A DNA stretch of 64,000 bases from Candidatus Saccharimonadota bacterium (GCA_019352195.1 JACAFG010000005.1:27582-91581), one strand, 5' to 3'. Positions 1,727 through 52,417 are shown, counted from the first letter of the stretch. Notes: generated by a model not told the origin, from the sequence alone. Made by a program: numbers and translations.

Positions 1727-2515
1727 ATGCCTGATATGACGGTGGTGCGACGTGTTGGGTTTCTGGTGGCGGCTGGGGCATTAAGTCTCTGGCCAGCGGC
1801 GCTGTGGGCCGATGCCACACAGCTTAGTCCCAGTTACAGTATTAATGAAAGCCAAATCGGCGGCATTGGTGATAATGGTAGCCAATCAACCAGCTATAGT
1901 TTTAAGCCCAGCGTGTCCGACGGGGGATCAACGCTTGGAGACAGCTTTACCGGCAACTCCGCTTCAACTATTTATCAAATCAATTCGGGCTTCAACACGG
2001 CGTCCAGCCCAACGCTTAGCTTTAGTGTTACCAGCAGCAGTGTTAACCTCGGCACATTATCAACTTCGGTGGTTCGAACTGGTACGGCGACCTTTAATGT
2101 TAAAAACTATACGTCGTCGGGGTATGTCGTGCAGGTGATCGGAGCGGGGCTTACGAGCGGCTCTCACACGCTGAGCGCATTATCAACCGACACTGCCAGC
2201 TCCCCCGGCACCGAGCAATTTGGTCTTAATACCGTATTTAATACCGTGGCGGGGGTTGGCGCCAACCCGGTGCAAAACCCAGCCGGCTTTGGCTATGGAG
2301 TGGCCGGTGACGGCGCTACCGGTACCTTTGGTACGACGCGTCCTTATACTATCCCCGACAAATACCGGTTCGTGAGTGGCGATACCATTGCTTCGGCACC
2401 CAGTAGTTCGGGCGAAACTGACTATACAACCACATTTATGGCCAACATTAGTAACCTAACTCCCGGAGGAACGTACCAAGGCAATATCATATTTGTTGCC
2501 ACCGGCACGTTTTAA
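1727..2515 (+). CDS. secreted Ser/Thr-rich surface protein, WxL-like family paralog 1
   Basis: The ORF 1370..2515 contains an internal ATG at 1727, followed by signal peptide MPDMTVVRRVGFLVAAGALSLWPAALWA. It carries a conserved SQFG/EQFGLN motif and a C-terminal IIFVATGTF shared with the next three genes. Confidence 0.55.
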   Translation: MPDMTVVRRVGFLVAAGALSLWPAALWADATQLSPSYSINESQIGGIGDNGSQSTSYSFKPSVSDGGSTLGDSFTGNSASTIYQINSGFNTASSPTLSFSVTSSSVNLGTLSTSVVRTGTATFNVKNYTSSGYVVQVIGAGLTSGSHTLSALSTDTASSPGTEQFGLNTVFNTVAGVGANPVQNPAGFGYGVAGDGATGTFGTTRPYTIPDKYRFVSGDTIASAPSSSGETDYTTTFMANISNLTPGGTYQGNIIFVATGTF

Positions 2516-2623
2516 ACAGTTGTCCAAGCTATAAGTTTGGTAGTGTTGTAAAGATAGCTTGACCCAGTCATTCCGCTTATGTTAATTTGTTTACATAAAG
2601 GGTAAGGGTTAAAAAGGGAAAAT

Positions 2624-3784
2624 ATGTTACTCAAGTATATTAAATATGAGCTCGAACGGCTTCATGTCGGCGTCTGGCTCGGAGTTGCTGCAGTAGCCGC
2701 ATCGCTGCTCGTTCCAATGACTGCTAGCGCAGCCGGACAAATTACAACCAGGAGTGTTACGCCGAGTACCTCTGCAGGGGCAGCAACTGGTGTTACCTAC
2801 ACCTCAACGTTCACGCTCGCAACTTCGGCTCAGACACTCGGATCCATTAAGGTTGAAATCTGCGACTCACCGCTAGCCACTACGGCTTGTTCGGCGAGTT
2901 CAACCAGCGGTGTTAATTCAAACGGTGCATCATTTAGCTCTGCCACGCTAACCAGCTTGACTGGTGCCGGTGGTGGTGCTTTTTCTGCCAGCACTAAGAC
3001 CGGTGCTTCAACGTCTGGTACCTCGTTTATCTTCACTCGTTCGGCGAGCGCTGTAACGGGTACGCCAACCTTGGTTTTAACAATTGGTAACGTTACCAAC
3101 CCAACGGGTGTTAACCAAGCCTATTACTTCCGTATCTCAACCTACTCAGATACAGCGGCTACAACGCCTAGCTACCCTGGTACCGACTTCGGTGCAGTAG
3201 CCATGGATACTACGCAAAGCGTTACTGTTAATGCTAACGTGCAAGAATCTTTGACCTTCTGCGTTGGCACGGTTGCCACGCCTGCCAACTGTGCGGCTGA
3301 GACTGGTTCGACAGTTAACATTGGTACCGGTACGGACAACATCCTGTCAACTTCACCTTCAGGTGGTATTTCGACGATGCTCGCTTCTACCAACGCTTCG
3401 TCCGGATACGCGATAACCTACACGGCCGGCAACTTAAGTTCTTCCAGTGACACCATTACCGCTATCAACGGTGGTTCCGGCACGAAGCTAGCCCTGCCTG
3501 GTGCTGGTACAGCCGCCTTTGGCATCAACCTCATGAGCAACACAGCTCCAAGTATTACCAACTCGGCAGCTGTTGCTGGTTCGGGTACCGGTGTTGCTAG
3601 TACGAACTATGCCACCACCAACCAGTTTGCCTTTGTTCCGGCTACTGCAACCACCATGGCGTCGGCCGCTGGCCCAACCGTATCAAACACTTACACGGTT
3701 TCTTACGCGGCTCAAGCTGGTGCTACTACCAAGCCTGGTGCGTTTACGACGACCTTTAATTACATTGCGACCGGCACGTTCTAA
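2624..3784 (+). CDS. secreted Ser/Thr-rich surface protein, WxL-like family paralog 2
   Basis: 386-aa ORF with signal peptide ending ASAAG. It has an AFGINL motif and a C-terminal FNYIATGTF. AAGGGA lies upstream of the ATG. Confidence 0.7.
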   Translation: MLLKYIKYELERLHVGVWLGVAAVAASLLVPMTASAAGQITTRSVTPSTSAGAATGVTYTSTFTLATSAQTLGSIKVEICDSPLATTACSASSTSGVNSNGASFSSATLTSLTGAGGGAFSASTKTGASTSGTSFIFTRSASAVTGTPTLVLTIGNVTNPTGVNQAYYFRISTYSDTAATTPSYPGTDFGAVAMDTTQSVTVNANVQESLTFCVGTVATPANCAAETGSTVNIGTGTDNILSTSPSGGISTMLASTNASSGYAITYTAGNLSSSSDTITAINGGSGTKLALPGAGTAAFGINLMSNTAPSITNSAAVAGSGTGVASTNYATTNQFAFVPATATTMASAAGPTVSNTYTVSYAAQAGATTKPGAFTTTFNYIATGTF

Positions 3785-3854
3785 GGACGTCCGGCCGACG
3801 GGTCGGCCGGCATAGATGATCCCGATATTACGACCCCCCTTAAACCCCAACTCG

Positions 3855-4907
3855 ATGAAAATCAAACGCTTTATAGAACAACTCGCACTCGTTGCACTCG
3901 CCGCTTCTGCGGTGGGGGTGACGGGTGCGAATGCTGCTGGCGGGATTACTTCGCGAAGTGATCTGATGGGTTCTGCCGCGGCCAGCGCGACCACGACCCA
4001 CCAGATTTCATTCACGACTGCGAGTTCGGCGAGCATTGGTTCGGTTAGCTTTACCTACTGTACGACGGCGTATTCTGCCTGTGTCGTTCCTGCCGGACTG
4101 AGCACGACTACGGCTAGTCTGAGCTCGCAAAGCGGTACCGGCGGCACCGGGTTTAGCATTGTGAACGGTACTAATGGTGCGCCCTACGTTACTCGTTCGT
4201 CTTCGGCCATTGGCAGTAGCGTGGCTCTAAGCTATACCCTCAGCGGTGTGGTTAACCCTAGCAGTACTAACACGGAGTTTTACGTTCGCGTCGCCACCTA
4301 TACGGGTACCGATGGGGCTACCGGAGTAGTAGATAACGGTGTCATCGCTATCTCCACTTCGCAAGAGATTACCGTCACGGGGACGATGCCCGAAAGTTTG
4401 GTATTTTGTGTCGGGACCGCAGGCACAGACTGCACTAATATGACCGGGTCGGCGGTTGGGCTGGGTATTTTCTCGCCGGCGGTCGCTTCGACTGGTACGA
4501 GTGTCATGAGCGCTTCAACGAACGCTTCGTTTGGTTACGCCATCACGATTACCGGTACTACGATGCAAAGCGGCGCTAATACGCTGCCGGCGATGGGAAC
4601 ACAAACGCAAAACTCCAGTAATAATGCGGCCTCGGCTACCGGATCGAGTCAGTTTGGGACTAATGTTCGCGCTAATACCACTCCGGCCGTGGGTAGTGAT
4701 GTTTCGGGATCTGGTACTGCTGTTGGCCAAGGTGGCTATAACACCGTCAATGGCTTCCGATTTATGAGCGGCGACATTGTGGCGGGAGTTGCGGGGCCGA
4801 CTAATGCCAACTTGTTTACGAATACCTATCTCGTAAACGTTGGCGGCAACCAAGCGGCCGGCGTATATACCTCAACCTTTACTTACATTTGTACGGCGAC
4901 GTTTTAA
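3855..4907 (+). CDS. secreted Ser/Thr-rich surface protein, WxL-like family paralog 3
   Basis: Internal start MKIKRF... with signal peptide ending ANAAG. It has an SSQFGTN motif and a C-terminal FTYICTATF. It is a clear paralog of the 4907..5947 gene. Confidence 0.7.
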   Translation: MKIKRFIEQLALVALAASAVGVTGANAAGGITSRSDLMGSAAASATTTHQISFTTASSASIGSVSFTYCTTAYSACVVPAGLSTTTASLSSQSGTGGTGFSIVNGTNGAPYVTRSSSAIGSSVALSYTLSGVVNPSSTNTEFYVRVATYTGTDGATGVVDNGVIAISTSQEITVTGTMPESLVFCVGTAGTDCTNMTGSAVGLGIFSPAVASTGTSVMSASTNASFGYAITITGTTMQSGANTLPAMGTQTQNSSNNAASATGSSQFGTNVRANTTPAVGSDVSGSGTAVGQGGYNTVNGFRFMSGDIVAGVAGPTNANLFTNTYLVNVGGNQAAGVYTSTFTYICTATF

Positions 4908-8667: not shown

Positions 8668-8684
8668 ATAAAAACGCTTATGAT
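8656..8684 (+). promoter_or_regulatory. sigma70-like promoter TTGTGT-17-TATGAT of the giant surface-protein gene
   Basis: -35 TTGTGT 8656-8661, 17-nt spacer, -10 TATGAT 8679-8684. The same promoter with the same AAACGCTTATGATT spacer/-10 recurs at 14886-14914. Downstream is GGAGA-3nt-GTG. Confidence 0.5.
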
Positions 8685-8713
8685 TGGAACAGTATTTTTG
8701 TGTTTGGAGACCT

Positions 8714-11700
8714 GTGAGCAGACTTTGGCTGTTAAAGCTAAATAAGCGTCCCGCCATAACACGAATCTACACCGCCCTAGCGCTTGCCGGGCTGTTTTGG
8801 GTTGGACTTATCACGCTTAACATACCCACAGCTTCGGCTACTGGTGCAGCGGGAATCTATTCAACCATCAATTACCAAGGGCGTTTGCTGACTTCGACGG
8901 GCGCCGTGGTTCCCGATGGAACGTATAACATGGAATTTCAGATTTGGCAGGACGGCAACGGTTGTGTTACCGGCTGTACTTCGGCCAATGCGTCAACCAA
9001 CAACGGCGGTACGCTTAAATGGACCGAGGACTACGTTTATGGCACCGGCTCTCCAGACAACCGCGTGACGGTGAAAAATGGCTATTTCTCGGTGAGCCTT
9101 GGTTCGATTACATCGCTGTCTAGTGTCAACTTCAACTGGGACACAAACTACCTCACGACTAATATTGGTAATACTTCGACAGCCGCTACCTTTAGCGTGG
9201 CTTCGGGCGATGGATACATGATTCCGTTTAAGCGCCTCAGCGCTAATCCTTATGCCCTTAACTCGTCGCAGCTGGGCGGCCTCACCAGTTCACAGTACAC
9301 GCAGCTCGGCCAGGGTATCCAGGGTGCCGCAACTACCGGTACGACGGCGCTTATTGGCCTCAACCAAACCTCCACCGGTACCATTTTGGACCTGCAAAAA
9401 GGTGGCGCCGACGTACTGCTTATCGACTCAACTGGATCAACTTTGTTCCGTCCCACTACCGACTCGGCTATCGCACTGCAGGTACAAAAAGCCGGTACCA
9501 CCACGACGGTGTTTACGGTAGATTCGTCCAACTCGCGCATTGGCATTGGCACGGCGGCACCAGCCTACGCCGTGGACGCGGTGGGCTCGATTAATGCTTC
9601 CACGAGCCTCAAAGTTGCTGGAACTGATGTTTGTACCACGGCTGGCTGTACCGCTGATCCGGCCTCAGCTATCAAGAACCAAAACAGTGCCCAGCAGACG
9701 AGTGCCAACTTTTGGATTTCAGGCAGCGGACGCGCTGATACAAGTATTCTCACCCCTGGACTCGATACCGCCACTGGTGTTGCCCTTGCGATTGGAACCA
9801 CGAATGCTACGAGTATTAACCTCAACGAGAGCACCAATGTAGCCACGGGCAAAACTTTTACCACAAACGGCAGTGGTTTTGACGCTACCGGTAAACTTGG
9901 CATTGGCACTACCAGCCCGGCGGCCAACCTGGACGTACACAGTACCGCCACGACTGGAAATGCGCTGAGCGTTACGGCGAACAACCTAACCACCGGTATC
10001 GCCGTCAATGTCTCCAGTAGCCCTACCGCCGGGACAGGCGGCGCGCTTATTAATGCCAGTCAGTCAGGAACTATAACTACGTCTGGTACCGTGGGTGGCT
10101 CGCTGCTCAATGTGCAGCGCAGTATTACGGCCAATGTGTCAGCAGCAAGTGCGATCACGTTTGATTCTAAAACCACATCTTCGAGCTACACGTGGTCGCA
10201 CACCGTAGCCAGCCAAACGAACCGAATTTTAATTGTGGAATGTGATTCTTCGAGTGCAGCCACTAGTGCTACCTATAACGGCGTTGCTATGACTTTGATT
10301 GGCACCATCACGAACCCATCGAACCCATCAGCGTTAACCTTCTGGAAGCTCCTTGCTCCGGCCACTGGAACTCACGCGGTTACTATGGACCAAAACTGCA
10401 ACGTTGGTGCTGCTATAGGTGGCGTTTCCAGTAGTTGGTATAACGTTGATCAGACTACAGGCACAGGGACGTTCAGTAGCAATGACGCGGCGGCTAACAA
10501 TGTCTCGGTCAGCGTGGCATCGTTATTTGGCCAGGTGGTGATTGACGGAGCCGATGCCTACTTAAACGGTTATAGTTCATGGACAAATATTCCTGGCTCG
10601 GGTCAAACTATGCTCCTCAATCCTTCGTTGAGTTACGATTCGGTAGGGGCTAGTTATAAGGCTGGGGCCGCCACCTCAACTACTATGACCTGGAACTTCA
10701 GCGCTGGCGCTGGTGTACATATCTATATCGGTGGTTTTGCGCTTATTCAAGCACCGACTGGTTCCGCGGTAAACCTAGTGGGTTCGATTGTAAACCTTGG
10801 CTCCAACTGCACTAACACCGCGGGCGGATGTGCCGACAACAGTAGTATTTTGAGCCTAAACCAGCAGTACGCTAGTGCTTCAGGCGCTGTGGCAACGTTG
10901 CAGAATGCTGGAACCGGAGATATGGTCGATTTCCTGAACGGCTCATCGAGCATACTATCGGGCTTCGACTCGAGCGGTAACCTGTTTTTCAATAACTCTA
11001 CCTTCAAGTCCACGCTGAGTACGGGTACCCTCTCAGCGCCGCGATCGATCACGTTGCCAGACGCGAGCGGCACGGTGTGTTTGTCGGTAGGTAACTGTAG
11101 TGCAGCGGGTGGGTACATTGTCAATGGCACGAGCTTGCAGGCCAGCTCTAACTTCCATATTTCGGGCAGTGGAACGGCCGACACGAGCCTGTTGACCCCG
11201 ACCTTGGATACGGCGAGTGCTAGTGCATTGTCGATCGGAGTCACTGCAGCTACCACCATCGGCCTCGGCCGTAGCGGCCAAACGCTCAACATTGGCAGCG
11301 ATGCGATTAACCTCAATAACGGCTATTTGAATGTGGCAGGTACCACGTCGGCCACCAATTCGAAAGCATCGCTGGCTGGGACCGTGGCCTCGAGTACTAC
11401 TTCGCAATATGGGTTGGATAACGAAGTGGCCTTTAATCCGCAAGTAGCTATTACCGGCGCGGTGTATGGCAGCGTCAATATTCCCAACTTGTCGGGCAGC
11501 GCTCTGGCTGTTAGTTCGCTGCAAGGCTTTACCGCCGGAGTAAAAGAAACGGGCGGCGTTGGCAATTTTACCGGTACGGTTACGGACGCAATCGGGCTCA
11601 ACATTACCTCACCTCAAATCACGGGTGGTGGCAATAAATTTACCACCTACACGGGAGTCGACGTGGGTGCCAACTCCATTAACGGCGGTAACACCTCCGG

Positions 11701-14700
11701 TATCCTCACGAACAACGGCATCATCGTCGAGAGTATTTCGGCCGGCGCGGGTTCCGGTGGGACGGTTAATAACTACGGTATTAATCTCGCCCAGCCGAGT
11801 GGTAGCGGTACCGGCACGACCAACAACTACGGCATTAACATTCAGGGTGCGGGTGGTGGCTCTAACAACTACTCCATCTACAACCAATCGACGGCGGCCA
11901 GTTACTTCTCGGGCAATGTTGGCATTAACCAACTGACCACCGGCTCCTACAACCTGAATGTAAACGGCACGGCTAACTTTGCGACCAGTATTAATGTGCC
12001 GAGCATTACATCGAGTGCGGGCCTCACCTTGGCGACTACGGGGACGAACGGTCTGACGGCTGATACAGGTGGAGCAGGGACTATCAAAGTTGGTGCGGCC
12101 AACGCCAACAGTATTTTGATTGGAACAGCGACAACAGCCCAGGCATCTGGCGCGACAGGCACTATCTTCATTGGCAACACGAACTCAACAATTGTCGGTA
12201 TTTCGGGTCAAACGGTTGGTGTTGGTTCACCCTCCGGTGGCGCGCTGTTTATTACGGGCGGCGGTGTCAATGTGCAAGGTGCGTCGGCATTGGCGATGCT
12301 TTTCAATGTCACCAACACATCAAACAAGACCATCCTTCATGTCGATAGTAGCGCTAATGTGGTGAGCTTGGGCCAAACTTCAAACCTGACTGGCCAACTG
12401 CAATTTAGTAATGCGACGAACGCGTTTACGTCGACGATTCAGGGTAACACGGCAGCAACGGCGAGCTACACGTCGATTTTGCCCGGCGCGGTAGGGTCGG
12501 CTGGTCAATGTTTGACCGTGGCTAGCGTGGCCTCGACAACGCAAACCCTGGGTTATAGCGCTTGTGGCGGCGGTAGCTACGTAACGTTGCAAGGTGTTAC
12601 GCCCGGCACGGCCGATACTGGTAATCTCAATATTACTGGCACGGGTATCTTTGCTACTCAGATAACTTCGCCGATCGTTAAGACAACGAACCTGCGCCCA
12701 ACGGCCGACGGCACCTCGGCTATTCAATTCCAGAACGCTGCTGGCACCACTAACGTGTTGACGGTTGATACTACGAATAGTCGAATTAACGTAGGTACCA
12801 ATGGCACACCGACTGGGCAATTGTATGTTTCGGGTACTTTGCCGACGGCTGCGGCTGGATCGGTATCAACTGGCTCAGCTCCTAATAACATTTACGTTCA
12901 AGGTCATTACGCCTATACAGCCAACTATAGCTCTAGCACGCTCGGTATTTATGATGTCAGTAACCCCGCCGCCCCTTTCAGTGTAGGGTCGGTCTCTATC
13001 TCCATAGCGACCAATGTCTATGTTCAGGGTCGTTATGCCTATGTTACAAGCCAGGGCAGCGGTGGCATTGTCATTGTTGATGTCAGTAATCCAAGCAGTC
13101 CGATCAGTGTTGGCTCGGTAGCTACGGGGAGTAATCCCAAGAGTATATTTGTACAAGGAAGTTATGCGTACGTAGTCAATAACGGAGCTAGTACCATAAG
13201 CATTGTTGATGTTCACAATCCGGCAAGCCCCACAATCATCGGATCTACGGCTACAGGCCTCAATCCAAGCAGTGTTTATGTCCAGGGCAGGTATGCCTAT
13301 GTGATAAATAATACTGCGAGTACCTTGAGCATTATTGATGTCAACAATCCGGCAAGTCCATCCAGTGTTGGATCGGTAGCTACTGGCTCCAACCCAAATG
13401 CCGTCTTTGTTCAAGATAACTATGCATATGTAACAAATAACAGCGGTGCCGGGATGAGCGTCATTGATGTCTCGGCCCCAAGTGCGCCATCGAGCGTGGG
13501 TACCGTAGCAACCGGTACGTCTCCCAACGGTATTTACGTTCAAGGACGGTACGCCTATGTGGCAAATAGTGGCTCAAACACAATTGGCATTTACGATGTT
13601 GGTGGCGCCTACACGCAGCAACTGGAGGCGGGCGGAGCACAGCTAGGTATGCTGGCCGTGGATGGCAACTCTACGTTGGCTGGAGATGCCTCGGTGCAGG
13701 GCGGCCTGCAGGTAGGGCAGAGCGTCCAAATTGGGGGCGATGCCGGTATTAACGGTGGCTTGTCGGTGGGGGGCTCGGCGTCATTCGATGGTCCCGTGCA
13801 GGTAGGTTCATCGCTTACCGACACGACGCAGGTAAACTTGCAGCTCGATTCGACGAGCTTGTTCGCAGATAGCGGCACTTGCAGCACCACCACTAATCAG
13901 GGTGCCTTGTATTACAATACCAACACCAACGCCATCCGGAGTTGTGTGGGCGGAGCGTGGGAAGACGTGATAACGACGAGTGGTCTTGGCCTGGTATTAT
14001 TTGGTATTGTGCCCGACGGTGTAGCAACAACCGGTGTCGGCGACTTGGCTGGTGCCGGCGGATATAATTCGGGTCCGTGCAAAGTTTACATGAGCGGTAC
14101 GGCAAATATTATTGTCTGGAACTCGTGTACGGCGTACTCGAGTGGCCGCAAAGTGGCGGTGGCCGCCGGTACAGCGACGGTGAGTTCGAGCACGAGTGTC
14201 TTCCAAAACTTGTGTATCAATACATCGGGCGTGGCGGCGCTGGTGGGAACGGCTAACGCCACAGAAACTACCGCTGGCCTGTTCCCGGCCTTTTCACCGA
14301 GCGCACCAATACTGTGTTTGGCTACCATAAAAACGGCGACGGTAGCGAATAAAGTGGCGGCAATTTACGATACGCGCGTATATACCACCGATGACAAGAC
14401 CATTGCGACCATTGCAACTACTACCGGCCTTGGATCGATGGTCACAAACAACGGCACCCTCGGTCGCTATGCACCCACGAGTGCGGTAACCAACTCAATT
14501 ATGGGCGTGGTGGTGGCCTATAGCGGCACGGTGAGTACGGCAACGCCGAATGCGATTATTGTTACCTATGGTCCAGTGGCCATTAAAGGCACGGGTACTT
14601 CTGGCACGATTGCCCAGATGATTGAATGGGGTGCGGCCAACGGTTATGCCACCACGGTGGCGGCGGCGACGACGGCCACCAACCCTTATACGTATGCTGG

Positions 14701-14794
14701 TGTGGCCCAAAATACCAATGGTACCGTAGCGGCAGGCTGTGCTGTGTACACGGCATGTAGTGGGTCGTTGTTTACTACTTTTGCGCCAAGATAA
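8714..14794 (+). CDS. giant secreted cell-surface protein with LVIVD beta-propeller repeats
   Basis: The ORF track gives 8684..14794 (2036 aa) from a TTG that lies upstream of the predicted transcription start site (TSS). The likely start is GTG 8714, preceded by GGAGA, giving MSRLWLLKLNKRP... plus a hydrophobic core and ASA cleavage site. Seven tandem ~40-aa LVIVD-type repeats (YVQGRYAYV...IVDVSNP) lie at ~12890-13600. The protein is T/S/G/A-rich, with GIGTTSPAANLDV tail-fibre-like motifs. Confidence 0.8.
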   Translation: MSRLWLLKLNKRPAITRIYTALALAGLFWVGLITLNIPTASATGAAGIYSTINYQGRLLTSTGAVVPDGTYNMEFQIWQDGNGCVTGCTSANASTNNGGTLKWTEDYVYGTGSPDNRVTVKNGYFSVSLGSITSLSSVNFNWDTNYLTTNIGNTSTAATFSVASGDGYMIPFKRLSANPYALNSSQLGGLTSSQYTQLGQGIQGAATTGTTALIGLNQTSTGTILDLQKGGADVLLIDSTGSTLFRPTTDSAIALQVQKAGTTTTVFTVDSSNSRIGIGTAAPAYAVDAVGSINASTSLKVAGTDVCTTAGCTADPASAIKNQNSAQQTSANFWISGSGRADTSILTPGLDTATGVALAIGTTNATSINLNESTNVATGKTFTTNGSGFDATGKLGIGTTSPAANLDVHSTATTGNALSVTANNLTTGIAVNVSSSPTAGTGGALINASQSGTITTSGTVGGSLLNVQRSITANVSAASAITFDSKTTSSSYTWSHTVASQTNRILIVECDSSSAATSATYNGVAMTLIGTITNPSNPSALTFWKLLAPATGTHAVTMDQNCNVGAAIGGVSSSWYNVDQTTGTGTFSSNDAAANNVSVSVASLFGQVVIDGADAYLNGYSSWTNIPGSGQTMLLNPSLSYDSVGASYKAGAATSTTMTWNFSAGAGVHIYIGGFALIQAPTGSAVNLVGSIVNLGSNCTNTAGGCADNSSILSLNQQYASASGAVATLQNAGTGDMVDFLNGSSSILSGFDSSGNLFFNNSTFKSTLSTGTLSAPRSITLPDASGTVCLSVGNCSAAGGYIVNGTSLQASSNFHISGSGTADTSLLTPTLDTASASALSIGVTAATTIGLGRSGQTLNIGSDAINLNNGYLNVAGTTSATNSKASLAGTVASSTTSQYGLDNEVAFNPQVAITGAVYGSVNIPNLSGSALAVSSLQGFTAGVKETGGVGNFTGTVTDAIGLNITSPQITGGGNKFTTYTGVDVGANSINGGNTSGILTNNGIIVESISAGAGSGGTVNNYGINLAQPSGSGTGTTNNYGINIQGAGGGSNNYSIYNQSTAASYFSGNVGINQLTTGSYNLNVNGTANFATSINVPSITSSAGLTLATTGTNGLTADTGGAGTIKVGAANANSILIGTATTAQASGATGTIFIGNTNSTIVGISGQTVGVGSPSGGALFITGGGVNVQGASALAMLFNVTNTSNKTILHVDSSANVVSLGQTSNLTGQLQFSNATNAFTSTIQGNTAATASYTSILPGAVGSAGQCLTVASVASTTQTLGYSACGGGSYVTLQGVTPGTADTGNLNITGTGIFATQITSPIVKTTNLRPTADGTSAIQFQNAAGTTNVLTVDTTNSRINVGTNGTPTGQLYVSGTLPTAAAGSVSTGSAPNNIYVQGHYAYTANYSSSTLGIYDVSNPAAPFSVGSVSISIATNVYVQGRYAYVTSQGSGGIVIVDVSNPSSPISVGSVATGSNPKSIFVQGSYAYVVNNGASTISIVDVHNPASPTIIGSTATGLNPSSVYVQGRYAYVINNTASTLSIIDVNNPASPSSVGSVATGSNPNAVFVQDNYAYVTNNSGAGMSVIDVSAPSAPSSVGTVATGTSPNGIYVQGRYAYVANSGSNTIGIYDVGGAYTQQLEAGGAQLGMLAVDGNSTLAGDASVQGGLQVGQSVQIGGDAGINGGLSVGGSASFDGPVQVGSSLTDTTQVNLQLDSTSLFADSGTCSTTTNQGALYYNTNTNAIRSCVGGAWEDVITTSGLGLVLFGIVPDGVATTGVGDLAGAGGYNSGPCKVYMSGTANIIVWNSCTAYSSGRKVAVAAGTATVSSSTSVFQNLCINTSGVAALVGTANATETTAGLFPAFSPSAPILCLATIKTATVANKVAAIYDTRVYTTDDKTIATIATTTGLGSMVTNNGTLGRYAPTSAVTNSIMGVVVAYSGTVSTATPNAIIVTYGPVAIKGTGTSGTIAQMIEWGAANGYATTVAAATTATNPYTYAGVAQNTNGTVAAGCAVYTACSGSLFTTFAPR

Positions 14795-48077: not shown

Positions 48078-48821
48078 GTGGGGCGTATTGTGGCTAAGCC
48101 GCTGCCCGAATTTTTACGGGTGCCATGGACGGTGCCGCAATCGCTGGGAATTTTTGTGACGGCCTGGTTTGCGCTGCCCGTCGGTTTGGTGGTGCTCATT
48201 GTGGCCTTAGCTCAGGTGTTTTCGCCGGTTCATACTCTGCTCGTGCTGATTCAGGGCAGCAGTTTGCAGGTGAGTTTTATTTTTGATCTTATTACCGCCG
48301 TTACCGCCTTGGGGTTGGTGTGGCTGGCCCTGCGCCATTACCAGGTGGGCTGGGCTGAAGTGGGCTGGCGCAAGTTTGATTTTTGGAAGACCGCCTTGTA
48401 CCTCGTCGGCGGATTCGTTGGCTTCACGCTGGTGGCGGCGCTGCTGATTGCGCTAGTGAGTTATTTGGTACCGAGCTTTAACGCTAATCAGGCGCAGAGT
48501 AATGACTTTACCGGTGCGGTTAAAACGCATGTTAGTCTCACGCTGATCGCGTTGGTGCTCATTCCGCCCATTATTGAGGAAACGGTATTTCGCGGGTTTA
48601 TTTTTCCCGCCATTGCCAAAAAATGGGGCGTATGGGGCGGTGCGATTGCCTCTAGTGTGTTGTTTGGATTGGCTCACTGGCAGGCAAATGTGAGCATTTA
48701 CACGTTTGTTTTGGGTCTGGTGCTATGTTTTTTGTACGTCAAGCTCAAAAGCATTTTCCCCGGCATGCTCATTCATATGCTCAATAACTTACTGGCGTTT
48801 TACGCTCTAGCATCGAAGTAG
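48078..48821 (+). CDS. CAAX/CPBP-family intramembrane metalloprotease
   Basis: EETVFRG and FGLAHW motifs. Confidence 0.75.
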   Translation: MGRIVAKPLPEFLRVPWTVPQSLGIFVTAWFALPVGLVVLIVALAQVFSPVHTLLVLIQGSSLQVSFIFDLITAVTALGLVWLALRHYQVGWAEVGWRKFDFWKTALYLVGGFVGFTLVAALLIALVSYLVPSFNANQAQSNDFTGAVKTHVSLTLIALVLIPPIIEETVFRGFIFPAIAKKWGVWGGAIASSVLFGLAHWQANVSIYTFVLGLVLCFLYVKLKSIFPGMLIHMLNNLLAFYALASK

Positions 48822-48869
48822 CCTAGGCCCAAGGCGGGCGAGCTCTCCTGAGCGAAGATACTAGACGTT

Positions 48870-49092
48870 GATGGTTACGACGGCTACAATGAGCACAAAG
48901 CAATGAAAGAGCCCCCACTCTGGAGCTGACGGCGATGAGCCGGTCCGTTTTTATCCAACGTCACTGGATTGGTCCGTTTAGGCGGACCGCAAGGCAGTCG
49001 TCGCGAGGCGATTGCAAAGATAGGATGGTACCGCGGCCTCGTCGCTCCTATCAACACTGCAGTTCTGTGGTGTTGTGAGGGCGATTTTTTAA
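48870..49092 (+). promoter_or_regulatory. T-box riboswitch-like leader of proS
   Basis: The T-box sequence AGGATGGTACCGCGG lies at 49022-49036. A terminator hairpin TCGCTCCTATCAACAC...GTGGTGTTGTGAGGGCGA follows, then TTTTTT at 49085-49090, directly before the proS start. Confidence 0.5.
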
Positions 49093-49105
49093 TGAGGATA
49101 CAACG

Positions 49106-50353
49106 ATGCGACTGAGTCATAATTTTACGAAAACCCGCCGCGACGCCCCAAAAGATGAAACCGCTCGAAACGCGCAACTGCTTATTCGGGCTGGATATGT
49201 TCACAAGATGATGGCCGGTGTGTACGCTTACTTGCCGCTCGGTAAACTTGTTCTCGATAACATTGCGCAAATTGTGCGAGAAGAAATGAACGCAGTTGGT
49301 GGTCAAGAAGTGCAAATGACCGTGCTTCAGCCCAAAGAATTGTGGGAGAAAACTGATCGTTGGGATGACAAAAAAGTTGATAACTGGTTCAAGACTAAAC
49401 TGGCTAATGGTACCGAAGTCGGCGTTGGACTATCACATGAGGAGCCAATTGTAGACTCGCTGAAGGCGTTTGTCGGCTCATACAAAGATTTACCGATCAC
49501 GATCTACCAGATTCAGAGCAAGTTTCGCAATGAACTTCGCGCCAAGAGCGGTTTACTGCGCGGTCGCGAGTTCATTATGAAAGATATGTATACTTTCGCT
49601 CAGACTCAGGAAGAGCACACCAAGCTGTATGAGCAAATTGCTGAGGCCTATATACGGATTTTTGAACGATTGGGACTGGGTGACAGCACTTACCGTACCT
49701 ATGCGGATGGCGGTTACTTCACTGAGAAATTTAGCGACGAATTCCAAACCGTCAGTCCAATCGGTGAAGACACAATTTACGTCGATGAAAAAAAACGCAT
49801 TGCTATCAACAAGGAAATCTACACTGACGAAAACCTCGCCAAGCTGAACTTTAATCGAGCCGATTTGGTGGAAAAGCGTGGTGTCGAAGTGGGCAATATT
49901 TTCCCGCTTGAAAGTAAATATTCCGATGCGCTCGATTTATATTACGTTGACGAGAAGGGCCAACGTCAGTCCATTATTATGGGCTGTTATGGCATTGGAA
50001 TTAGCCGTCTGGTGGGTATGATTGCGGAGCATTTTGCTGATGACAACGGTCTCGTCTGGCCGGCATCGATTGCGCCGGCCGAGGTGCATCTGGTGGCGTT
50101 AGGAACTGACGCGGAAATTGTGGCGGCGGCCGACGATTTGTACCACGAGCTGACAGCGGCAGGGCATGAGGTTATTTATGATGATCGTGACGTGCAGGCC
50201 GGGCTGAAGTTTGCTGATGCCGATCTCATGGGCATGCCGCTACGCATCACCGTCTCTAAGAAAACTTTGGCCGAAGGCAGCGTCGAGTTTAAAGCCCGCA
50301 CCGAAGAGGAAACGCGCATGGTGAAGCTAGCAGACGTGATTACGGCGCTCTAG
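49106..50353 (+). CDS. proS: prolyl-tRNA synthetase (short form)
   Basis: Class II core motifs and a C-terminal anticodon-binding domain. 415 aa. Confidence 0.9.
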   Translation: MRLSHNFTKTRRDAPKDETARNAQLLIRAGYVHKMMAGVYAYLPLGKLVLDNIAQIVREEMNAVGGQEVQMTVLQPKELWEKTDRWDDKKVDNWFKTKLANGTEVGVGLSHEEPIVDSLKAFVGSYKDLPITIYQIQSKFRNELRAKSGLLRGREFIMKDMYTFAQTQEEHTKLYEQIAEAYIRIFERLGLGDSTYRTYADGGYFTEKFSDEFQTVSPIGEDTIYVDEKKRIAINKEIYTDENLAKLNFNRADLVEKRGVEVGNIFPLESKYSDALDLYYVDEKGQRQSIIMGCYGIGISRLVGMIAEHFADDNGLVWPASIAPAEVHLVALGTDAEIVAAADDLYHELTAAGHEVIYDDRDVQAGLKFADADLMGMPLRITVSKKTLAEGSVEFKARTEEETRMVKLADVITAL

Positions 50354-50359
50354 GGTCGT

Positions 50360-51394
50360 TTATTTCATGTTAACTTTGAGAAACGACAAGGTATTAGTAA
50401 GGAATGCGGCCCCGGAACCGGCTTGGCTGTACTGGTGATCGCCGCCTGCGTAGGTGTAGTAAACATGAGGAATGTTGGCGGCGGTAAGGCTAGAGTCGAG
50501 GCTAGCGCTAAAGGCGATTGGCACGACCGTATCGGCGGTACCATGGTTAATCTCGACCGGTGCGGTAATGGCGCTGACATAGTTGATAGCGGAAATATCG
50601 TGCCAGAAGGCGGGACTCGATTTTGGCGTGCCATGCGCAGTGATGAAGGCGGCTTTTTGCGGTATAAGATCGGCTGGTAGCATGGCAACTGGCCAATTAT
50701 TGAGGGTGTCGTCAACTGAACCAACCACGCCCGAAGCGGTGATAATAGCTTTGACGGGCAAATTGTGGCTGGCGACGGCGGCACGCAAGACCACGGCCCC
50801 GCCCATACTGTGACCAAGCCAGGCCACTTGGTTGGCATTAACGCCCGACAGGTTGACGAGCGAGGCGGTGAGACCCAGCAAATCGTAGGTATAGCCCGCC
50901 TCTAGGTCGCCGACGGTAGGGGAACCGGCGGAGCTGCCGTTGCCCCGATAATCGAGCTTAAGGATAGCGTAACCGGCGCTACAGAACGTATTCATAAAAC
51001 CCTGGTAATCGGTAGCGTCGGTTTTATAGGTGGTGGGCGCGATGTAGCCGTGAGCCAAAATGATGACCGGGTAGCCGCCGCTGGGAGCGGCGGTAGATGG
51101 TTGTTGGAATAAAGCGTATTCGGTGAGGCCGTCGACACGAAACGACACCACCTTGGTGGGGCAGCCGCCGCGGCTGGGTAAGGTTTGGGTCACCGTGACG
51201 GGGCTTGGAACCACGGGGTGAGCGCGTACCGCAGCAATACTGAGGGGATTTGGCGGCGCCACCGTCGGCGAGGCAGAGACTTTGGGGCGTGGTGTTGGCG
51301 CCTTGGCGGGAGCACTTGTTAGCACGATCAGGCCAATGGCGGAGCCAACAGATAATACTATCAGCACAATGATGGCAATGAGGAGACGCTTCAT
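50360..51394 (-). CDS. secreted/anchored alpha/beta hydrolase (dienelactone hydrolase/S9-like)
   Basis: GHSMGG nucleophile elbow and an N-terminal TM. Confidence 0.7.
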   Translation of the reverse strand: MKRLLIAIIVLIVLSVGSAIGLIVLTSAPAKAPTPRPKVSASPTVAPPNPLSIAAVRAHPVVPSPVTVTQTLPSRGGCPTKVVSFRVDGLTEYALFQQPSTAAPSGGYPVIILAHGYIAPTTYKTDATDYQGFMNTFCSAGYAILKLDYRGNGSSAGSPTVGDLEAGYTYDLLGLTASLVNLSGVNANQVAWLGHSMGGAVVLRAAVASHNLPVKAIITASGVVGSVDDTLNNWPVAMLPADLIPQKAAFITAHGTPKSSPAFWHDISAINYVSAITAPVEINHGTADTVVPIAFSASLDSSLTAANIPHVYYTYAGGDHQYSQAGSGAAFLTNTLSFLKVNMK

Positions 51395-51412: not shown

Positions 51413-52417
51413 CTAACTGTCGTAAGCGGCCAAAAAGGCGTTGTTGTTTTTTAGCAGGTCGGATAGTCCGGTAGGATTTACAAACAGGTGACCAGTATCA
51501 GGGTACGTAAAATACTCGTGAGTTTTACCCGCGGCGGTGAGGGCGAGGTTGAGCTTAGCTGCAAAGGCCGGAGGGACACTGACATCGGTGAGGCCTTGGT
51601 TGATTTGTACCGGTACTGATAAACTTGAAACGTAGTTGATGGAAGATGCGTCATGCCAGTAGGCCGGATTTTGGCTGGGCGGCCCTTCGGCGCCGAGCAC
51701 TTGGCGGCGCTTGATGGCGACATCTGGTGGAACACGGCCGGTCCAATGAAATGCCAGGTTGGGGAGTGAATCGACGGCGCCAGCAATGGTAATGAGGCCG
51801 CGAATCGGCATGTTATGGGGCGCAACACCGGCGCGGAGGATTATCGCGCCGCCCATGCTATGGCCAATGAGGACGATTCGACTGGGATTTGCCAGAGGAT
51901 AGGTAGGCATGGAAGCGGCCAGGTTTAAGACATCGTAGGTATCATCCGGCGAAAATAAGCCGTTGCTGGCAACTCCCTGGGAGCTGCCAACGCCGCGGTA
52001 ATCGGGTTTTAAGATGAGATAGCCGTGTTGGCAGTACGATTCGATCATGGCTTGATACTGGGTGTTGTCGGTCTTGTAGGTTTTGGAATCGGTGTAGCCA
52101 TGCGCAAAAATAATTACCGGGTAGCCGCCGCGCGGCATGGCGGCCACGGGACGGGTAGCCAGCGCGTACTGAGTGAGGCCGTCGGAGTGAAATGACACGA
52201 TGTTCGTAGGACAGCCGGCGCGGGGCGCGACGGTTTTGACGGCGGCAATAACGCCGGGGGTGAGGGGATGCAGCCGGACCGCTTCAATGGCAGCTGGGTT
52301 GGGTTCGTCACCGTCTGGTTCAGGTTTCGTAAAACTCGTCACGCCAAAAATCGCCAGGGCAAGACTGCCCAGCGACGCGGTGATGATGAGAGCGAAAAGC
52401 GCGCGTTGTTTAACCAT
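51413..52417 (-). CDS. alpha/beta hydrolase paralog
   Basis: GHSMGG, with overall collinearity to 50360..51394. Confidence 0.7.
   Translation of the reverse strand: MVKQRALFALIITASLGSLALAIFGVTSFTKPEPDGDEPNPAAIEAVRLHPLTPGVIAAVKTVAPRAGCPTNIVSFHSDGLTQYALATRPVAAMPRGGYPVIIFAHGYTDSKTYKTDNTQYQAMIESYCQHGYLILKPDYRGVGSSQGVASNGLFSPDDTYDVLNLAASMPTYPLANPSRIVLIGHSMGGAIILRAGVAPHNMPIRGLITIAGAVDSLPNLAFHWTGRVPPDVAIKRRQVLGAEGPPSQNPAYWHDASSINYVSSLSVPVQINQGLTDVSVPPAFAAKLNLALTAAGKTHEYFTYPDTGHLFVNPTGLSDLLKNNNAFLAAYDS

Follow-up and report, generated by a model that had tools for sequence, protein, structure and literature searches.

The proS gene of the window, by which the whole 64,000-nucleotide stretch of DNA analysed here is meant, is preceded by an RNA leader which, judging from its sequence and modelled folds, is likely to be a T-box riboswitch that responds to tRNA(Pro) and regulates proS through transcription attenuation in Candidatus Saccharibacteria. 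An earlier note had placed a T-box-like leader at 48870-49092. The features named in it were found at the positions given, while the start at 48870 falls inside a promoter-like site and the RNA element itself begins at about 48896. The parts of the leader and its gene are the following.

48862-48867 and 48885-48890 (+): promoter-like site, TAGACG and TACAAT with a 17-nt spacer, 9 of 12 consensus matches
48899-48927 (+): ultrashort stem I, 28 nt, from the Rfam alignment, RNAalifold and pair counts
48902-48906 opposite 48922-48924: K-turn (GA motif), AAUGA opposite GGA, following the base helix AGC/GCU of stem I
48908-48911 with 48918-48921: upper helix of stem I, AGAG/CUCU, 4 bp
48912-48917 (+): terminal loop of stem I, CCCCCA
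48914-48916 (+): specifier CCC (Pro) with the 3' purine A48917, on the 3' side of the terminal loop
48928-48945 (+): miniature stem II, a 6-bp hairpin GACGGC/GCCG(g)UC with one bulge, from RNAalifold
48934-48938 (+): GAUGA pentaloop of stem II
48946-48968 (+): stem IIA/B pseudoknot, from a manual tally
48946-48948 with 48958-48960: IIB, CGU paired with ACG
48954-48957 with 48965-48968: IIA, UCCA paired with UGGA
48958-48964: F-box-like loop ACGUCAC (the F-box being CCGUUA)
48971-48988 (+): lineage-specific inserted hairpin GGUCCG-UUUAGG-CGGACC, between pseudoknot and stem III
48989-49021 (+): stem III region, consisting of GCAAGG, a helix at 48994-49015 (9 bp, GCGA loop) and AAAGAU
49020-49051 (+): antiterminator, -13.4 kcal/mol
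49020-49025 with 49046-49051: helix A1, AUAGGA paired with UCCUAU, 6 bp
49022-49036 (+): T-box sequence AGGATGGTACCGCGG
49026-49032 (+): T-box bulge UGGUACC, 7 nt, between A1 and A2
49033-49037 with 49041-49045: helix A2, GCGGC paired with GUCGC, 5 bp, loop CUC
49041-49090 (+): terminator, with 5' arm 49041-49061, 3' arm 49066-49085 and U6 at 49085-49090
49042-49057 and 49067-49084: terminator arms TCGCTCCTATCAACAC and GTGGTGTTGTGAGGGCGA, with two small internal loops
49094-49098 (+): SD GAGGA, from the sequence
49106-50353 (+): proS, ATG at 49106, an ORF of 415 aa

According to the proposed mechanism, transcription would begin at about 48896, and the anticodon of tRNA(Pro) would pair with CCC 48914-48916 in the terminal loop of the 28-nt stem I, while the small stem II hairpin and the stem IIA/B pseudoknot would pack beside stem I. 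The 3' ACCA end of the uncharged tRNA would pair with UGGU 49026-49029 of the bulge; this pairing would stabilise the weak antiterminator, and RNA polymerase would read through into proS. With the tRNA charged or absent, the stronger terminator (49041-49085 plus U6) would form, and transcription would stop 16 nt before the start codon. In textbook T-boxes, docking on the tRNA elbow falls to the distal part of stem I. As this part is missing here, recognition would have to rest on the G+C-rich codon-anticodon helix, on stem II with the pseudoknot, and on the acceptor end. Transcriptional T-boxes have been held to need the elbow contact for fast tRNA capture (PMC7583486), so that an ultrashort stem I coupled to a terminator runs against expectation.

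The T-box sequence at 49022-49036 upstream of proS was present as the earlier note had reported it. When a segment of 551 nt (48700-49250) was searched with RF00230, the T-box model of Rfam, a match was obtained at 48894-49052 that covered the full model (1-219) with an E-value of 2.9e-7 and a score of 39.3 bits, far under the Rfam gathering score of 93 bits for this family. A scan of the whole 64-kb window with Rfam at the gathering threshold found no family, and the same scan at E<=0.1 gave nothing, the latter because of speed filters. The low score results from stem I, in which 76 model positions are replaced by 6 nt; this is the sole large gap, and stem II through the antiterminator all align to RF00230. 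With a covariance model specific to the family, the window leader scored 104 bits (E~1e-23). The claim of a T-box leader is thus borne out by the full-length match and by the family model, while the RF00230 search proposed for it was negative at the curated threshold and positive as a sub-threshold match. Against RF00230, leaders with a long stem I, taken as controls, reached 110 bits (L180) and 89.8 bits (L196), and other ultrashort leaders 44-58 bits each. By its core features the window leader is a T-box, and it is invisible to annotation at the curated threshold. In L180 (reverse strand) the gene behind the canonical long-stem-I T-box is SerRS-like (ORF start at oriented position 3948) and has an in-frame TAG at codon 23, which could point to recoding or to an error in sequencing.

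The window leader and all relatives had a stem I of 28 nt. The AG bulge, the internal specifier loop and the distal loop, or elbow platform, of a long stem I were absent. From the alignment, a K-turn appears to be present at the base of stem I: GC-AAUGA...GGA-GC aligns to the K-turn positions of the model, with GA and GGAGC unchanged throughout the family. The helices of stem I (helices 1-2 of the pair counts) were 98-100% paired, with three pairs changed on both sides. The promoter-like site would set the transcript start about 6-7 nt downstream, just before the conserved AAAGC (about 48896). In all relatives, too, AAAGC is preceded at this distance by a -35/-10 pair (TTGACA...TATAGT in L099 and L207, for instance), and the conserved spacing leaves no room for a longer 5' strand of stem I.

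These data bear on the idea that the leader is a canonical T-box whose long stem I was missed, with the partner strand upstream of 48895, or whose truncation is an assembly artefact. Rfam-style models do expect about 100 nt of stem I, and deletions are possible in metagenome assemblies. The idea is nevertheless extremely improbable, as the promoter-like site ends 6 nt before the leader, the gene of the CPBP protease ends at 48821 and the promoter spacing is conserved, while the same short hairpin was found in independent NCBI, JGI and ENA assemblies, with six separate samples for L208-L213.

A Pro CCN codon had been expected as specifier in the earlier note, and CCC followed by A was found at 48914-48916 and 48917. 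With stem I reduced to a 28-nt hairpin, the codon was not to be found by eye where it usually lies. In all 10 relatives the stem I loop ends, on its 3' side, in CCN and a purine. In L040, L099, L146, L177, L207 and L208, CCC-G closes a loop of 7 nt, and the loop of L078, UUCCCAG, holds CCA-G in the same register, or CCC-A. The Bacillota proS leader L196, which has a long stem I, carries CU-CCC-A on the 3' side of its specifier loop. A purine 3' of the specifier stacks under the codon-anticodon helix (R90) (PMC7583486). The gene behind each related leader is proS, preceded by a csaA-like gene in L146. In that locus (2126-3917) the leader stands before an ORF of 110 aa with a csaA/Trbp111-like tRNA-binding domain (2315-2647), which slightly overlaps proS, and the T-box would there control an operon of two genes.

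Two other readings of the stem I loop were tried and rejected. Autoregulation by ProRS through a mimic of the anticodon arm was discarded, the loop being the complement of the tRNA(Pro) anticodon loop and no copy of it. Pairing of the G-rich 3' arm of the terminator with the specifier loop gave duplex energies no better than those of composition-matched shuffles. A fraction of 0.51 of the shuffles equalled or bettered the window duplex (0.02-0.5 overall), and the complementarity was dismissed as an effect of composition.

Stem II consists only of the 6-bp hairpin with the GAUGA loop, in which no AGUA/GAA motif of an S-turn was seen. At its second pair, where the other leaders have C-G, the window leader has A-U, a change on both sides. 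The GGCGAUGAGCC hairpin also occurs in the long-stem-I T-boxes L196 and L180. In the pseudoknot, IIB is CGU/ACG in the window and in L040 and CGG/CCG in the other leaders, and IIA covaries by manual tally (UCCA/UGGA, CCCG/CGGG, CCGA/UCGG, CCCA/UGGG, CUCA/UGAG and GCGC/GCGC). Stem III (helix 5) covaries strongly, with three of its four modelled pairs changed on both sides, and its flanks AAGG/GAGG and GAAG/AAAG are conserved in the alignment. A motif RRRxG-stem III-AA has been described for T-boxes (PMC7583486), and the flanks GCAAGG/AAAGAU of the window leader fit it.

The hairpin inserted between the pseudoknot and stem III is missing from most relatives; in L099 this site is occupied by another hairpin. 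In the window leader GGUCCGUUU occurs twice, at 48942-48950 and 48971-48979. The second GGTCCGTTT copy provides the 5' strand of the inserted hairpin; CGGACC 48983-48988 is a possible partner for either one. The inserted hairpin of L099 is unrelated and also has an F-box-like ACCGU. Both insertions may be duplications of the pseudoknot element.

Helices A1 and A2 of the antiterminator (helices 6-7) were 100% paired across the 11 leaders, with seven pairs changed on both sides. Next to the bulge, A2 has the pair G49033-C49045 in the window leader, A-U in the relatives and G-U in the Rfam consensus, in L196 and in L180. The A2 wobble pair has been described as a steric sensor of the aminoacyl group (PMC7583486). 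If the bulge-proximal pair is this wobble pair, as we have assumed, the sensor G-U is absent here.

The terminator arms and the U6 run just before proS were found as the earlier note had described them. The 5' arm of the terminator reuses the 3' strands of A2 and A1, and terminator and antiterminator are mutually exclusive. The stretch comprising discriminator and terminator folded with -28.5 kcal/mol, compared with -13.4 kcal/mol for the antiterminator. In all eight leaders folded, the terminator region had -23 to -30 kcal/mol against -5 to -15 kcal/mol for the antiterminator, and the terminator shared the 3' strand of the antiterminator and was followed by U5-U7. The SD lies 3 nt 3' of the U-run, outside the helix in both conformers. 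As modelled, this platform has the layout of a transcriptional T-box and no SD sequestration.

A translational T-box like the ultrashort class of Actinobacteria, with the 3' hairpin as a sequestrator that limits ribosome access, was also considered. The T-boxes with ultrashort stem I described so far are all translational (bioRxiv 10.1101/2023.02.28.530422; PMC7583486), and with the SD only 3 nt past the U-run the adjoining stable hairpin could reduce initiation. This reading is unlikely, since GAGGA 49094-49098 is in no helix of either conformer and the hairpin is directly followed by U6. The corresponding runs of U5-U7 in all eight folded leaders, including that of L078 with 37% G+C, are a signature of intrinsic terminators. 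Attenuation of transcription through tRNA sensing, already suggested in the earlier note, would best explain the leader, and it is put forward with good confidence.

The UGGU of the bulge predicts A73 as discriminator base. The sole related tRNA-Pro gene in the loci examined (L091, 4294-4367) has A73; its anticodon UGG mismatches CCC at the wobble position. The same contig also bears a cut copy of the leader. No tRNA gene was detected by ARAGORN within the 64-kb window.

Ten related leaders of the same architecture were found in Patescibacteria genomes and metagenomes (L040, L078, L099, L146, L177, L207, L208-L213). One homologous leader, L040, was obtained by nhmmer against 80 GTDB loci. A metagenome scan was carried out with the most conserved block, GGAGCTGNNGGCGATGAGCC; among the 120 matches listed, eight were leaders and most others were G+C-rich coding sequence. 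Short stems I were seen, among the matches listed, in L099, L146, L177 and L087/L091, and long ones in L196 and L180. Relatives of the L040 ProRS led to the leaders L207 and L208-L213, the latter from six samples and with the rseP-CPBP-leader-proS synteny of the window. A covariance model, R1, was built on eight leaders. When it was run on the window and 86 proS loci of Patescibacteria, no more than three leaders were detected, those of the window (104 bits), of L040 (155 bits) and of the AT-rich L078 (50 bits; 37% G+C), in agreement with a simple structural scan for antiterminators. Two extra hits of the structural scan, L005 and L030, were rejected as chance matches, as they lacked ACC and lay far upstream.

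The element was thus present in 3 of 81 genomes, the window and 2 of 80 GTDB species representatives. It was absent from L082/L083, despite a closer ProRS, the same CPBP-proS synteny and a gap of 272 nt, and also from L084-L086 and L214. On the sequences compared, the occurrence of the element appears sporadic, though some of the lineages that carry it have a ProRS with no more than 55-61% identity to that of the window. L081 and L082, the closest ProRS relatives (74-76% identity), lack a T-box. Upstream of proS they share a hairpin (C)CGCC-YCG-GCGG-TAAT followed by a T-rich stretch (L082 1430-1470, L081 8-40), which could belong to another leader or serve as terminator for the gene upstream.

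MAFFT misaligned the pseudoknot, as the window and L099 have an extra hairpin with an F-box-like CCGU; the insertions were trimmed and IIA was tallied by hand. From the plain MAFFT alignment, with the two insertions trimmed, RNAalifold recovered stem I, stem II, IIB, stem III, A1 and A2, and 11 of the 33 predicted pairs were changed on both sides. In the pair counts for 11 leaders, made on an alignment fitted to the covariance model and including several rows from close relatives, 99.1% of the cells were paired, compared with 88.7% in shuffles. Fifteen pairs were changed on both sides, a number reached by none of 500 shuffles, while slid controls gave 2-5. The pseudoknotted IIA lies outside the covariance model.

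The same data speak to the view that the leader is a decaying relic, what is left of a canonical proS T-box after deletion of the distal stem I, with no function now but that of a constitutive, leaky terminator. The sporadic occurrence (3 of 81 related genomes) and its absence from the closest ProRS relatives would fit a relic, as would the replacement of the conserved A2 G-U pair and the Bacillota leader L196, which resembles the undeleted form. The truncated form is, however, kept in at least eight distinct lineages with ProRS identities down to 55-61%. Compensatory changes are found in every helix, and the Pro codon with its purine and the competition between terminator and antiterminator are preserved. 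A dead element would not keep such features, and decay is therefore regarded as very unlikely compared with a tRNA-responsive leader.

The proS ORF scored above the TIGR00409 cutoff, and its best database matches were annotated as ProRS. The protein is of the bacterial type and lacks the INS editing domain; its alignment with the 437-aa NF008979 model runs over the full length at a score under the NF008979 cutoff, and the short form is common to all Patescibacteria homologues (410-435 aa). A protein in NCBI from "Candidatus Saccharibacteria bacterium" matches the window ProRS with 100% identity, relatives with 70-76% identity belong to Saccharimonadales and other Patescibacteria, and the best 80 GTDB loci by ProRS are nearly all from Saccharibacteria or other Patescibacteria. 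ProRS and the neighbouring genes identify the host of the window, at the level of sequence comparison, as a member of Candidatus Saccharibacteria/Saccharimonadales (Patescibacteria/CPR). The suggestion that the T-box places the organism near Firmicutes or Actinobacteria was therefore not upheld, and with an occurrence in 3 of 81 related proS loci the element is a poor taxonomic marker.

The genes 5' of proS are uppS, rseP and that of the CPBP protease. Two tandem paralogous genes for alpha/beta hydrolases follow on the 3' side in convergent orientation, at 50360-51394 (-) and 51413-52417 (-). Their products are secreted or membrane-anchored and match Peptidase_S9 (prolyl oligopeptidase family), Hydrolase_4 and Peptidase_S15 of Pfam. 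As these next genes are convergent, proS is monocistronic, and the hydrolase genes are outside the T-box transcription unit. Elsewhere in the window, an ORF of 2036 aa with LVIVD repeats (8684-14794, +), in which no other Pfam domain was detected, probably encodes a large surface protein.

Beyond proS, a T-box-like leader was observed before an IleRS-like gene (ORF start 4177) in a MAG of Moraniibacteriota (L021, 3935-4140, +). Its ultrashort stem I, GGGA-[AUAUCAA]-UCCC, holds AUC followed by A; its T-box AAGGUGGCACCACG is followed by a hairpin and a U-run, the bulge UGGC predicts a G73 discriminator base, and the Rfam score of 57.6 bits is under the gathering score. From this leader, ultrashort T-boxes coupled to terminators may be more general in Patescibacteria. 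On balance we lean towards an unrecognised T-box subclass in Patescibacteria in which an ultrashort stem I is joined to an intrinsic terminator. It is unseen by standard Rfam annotation, and its members would lie upstream of proS in Saccharibacteria and apparently of ileS in Moraniibacteriota (L021).

Should these leaders prove to be transcriptional switches, they would rank as the smallest transcriptional T-boxes in nature and as a counter-example to the view that co-transcriptional sensing of tRNA needs the contact between stem I and the elbow. CPR/Patescibacteria have reduced genomes and few known regulators. If the present reading holds, T-box regulation would extend to this group, and the ultrashort class would extend beyond ileS and tRNA(Ile). 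Models of T-box function couple stem I length to regulatory mode, a long stem with elbow contact serving the time-limited transcriptional decision and a short one the slower translational decision (PMC7583486). A terminator combined with a 28-nt stem I would then offer a direct test case for this kinetic argument and a compact scaffold for engineering. With scores of 39-58 bits against a gathering score of 93, such leaders are missed systematically by annotation, and the true distribution of T-boxes is probably underestimated.

In the literature, T-boxes with an intermediate or ultrashort stem I are translational and mostly from Actinobacteria (PMC7583486). In TBDB a truncated stem I belongs to the translational class II, which was searched for in Actinobacteria (PMC7778990). 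Ultrashort ileS T-boxes of Actinobacteria are attributed to Sherwood, Grundy and Henkin 2015, as summarised in PMC7583486 and bioRxiv 10.1101/2023.02.28.530422. The members of this class have the specifier in a terminal loop, all regulate ileS in response to tRNA(Ile), and act on translation by sequestration of the SD (bioRxiv 10.1101/2023.02.28.530422). The window leader shares with them the short stem I helix, the specifier in the terminal loop and the missing elbow platform, and like them it retains the K-turn, the IIA/B pseudoknot, stem III and the UGGN bulge. It differs in its CCC specifier and proS target in place of tRNA(Ile) and ileS, in the hairpin with U6 and the SD outside the helix, in having only a mini stem II, and in its phylum. 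No paper linking T-boxes with Saccharibacteria, Patescibacteria, CPR or TM7 was found in the literature searched, and the primary papers on Actinobacteria may mention a short stem I coupled to a terminator. We judge that the combination of proline specificity, terminator coupling and ultrashort stem I in a CPR bacterium is not described in the T-box literature searched.

T-boxes of glyQS have a G+C-rich codon-anticodon helix and lack a full stem II (PMC7583486). A similar logic is seen here, as the mini stem II goes together with CCC, while a long stem II is found in the AT-rich L078, where the codon presented by the loop may be CCA. The mini stem II would fit G+C-rich codon-anticodon pairs that need less lateral support. 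In other respects the two are opposites, the glyQS leaders having kept the long stem I and elbow platform without the IIA/B pseudoknot.

Compared with canonical transcriptional T-boxes (RF00230 class I, such as Bacillus glyQS and tyrS, and L196), the window leader lacks the AG bulge, the distal loop and the elbow platform, and its specifier lies in a terminal rather than an internal loop. It has no recognisable S-turn stem II, its A2 pair is G-C and not G-U, its host belongs to the Patescibacteria, and its Rfam score is 39 bits, compared with 90-110 for L196 and L180. It shares with this class the K-turn of stem I, the specifier followed by a purine, the IIA/B pseudoknot with an F-box-like loop, the purine-flanked stem III and the 7-nt UGGNACC bulge between A1 and A2. 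The competing terminator with its U-run and an aminoacyl-tRNA synthetase gene as target are also held in common. The nearest relative in sequence with a long stem I is L196 from Bacillota (68.8 bits with R1), which has the GGAGCUG-NN-GGCGAUGAGCC stem II hairpin, the K-turn, the pseudoknot and the CCC-A specifier in common with the window leader. In sequence, the saccharibacterial leader looks like L196 without the distal part of stem I.
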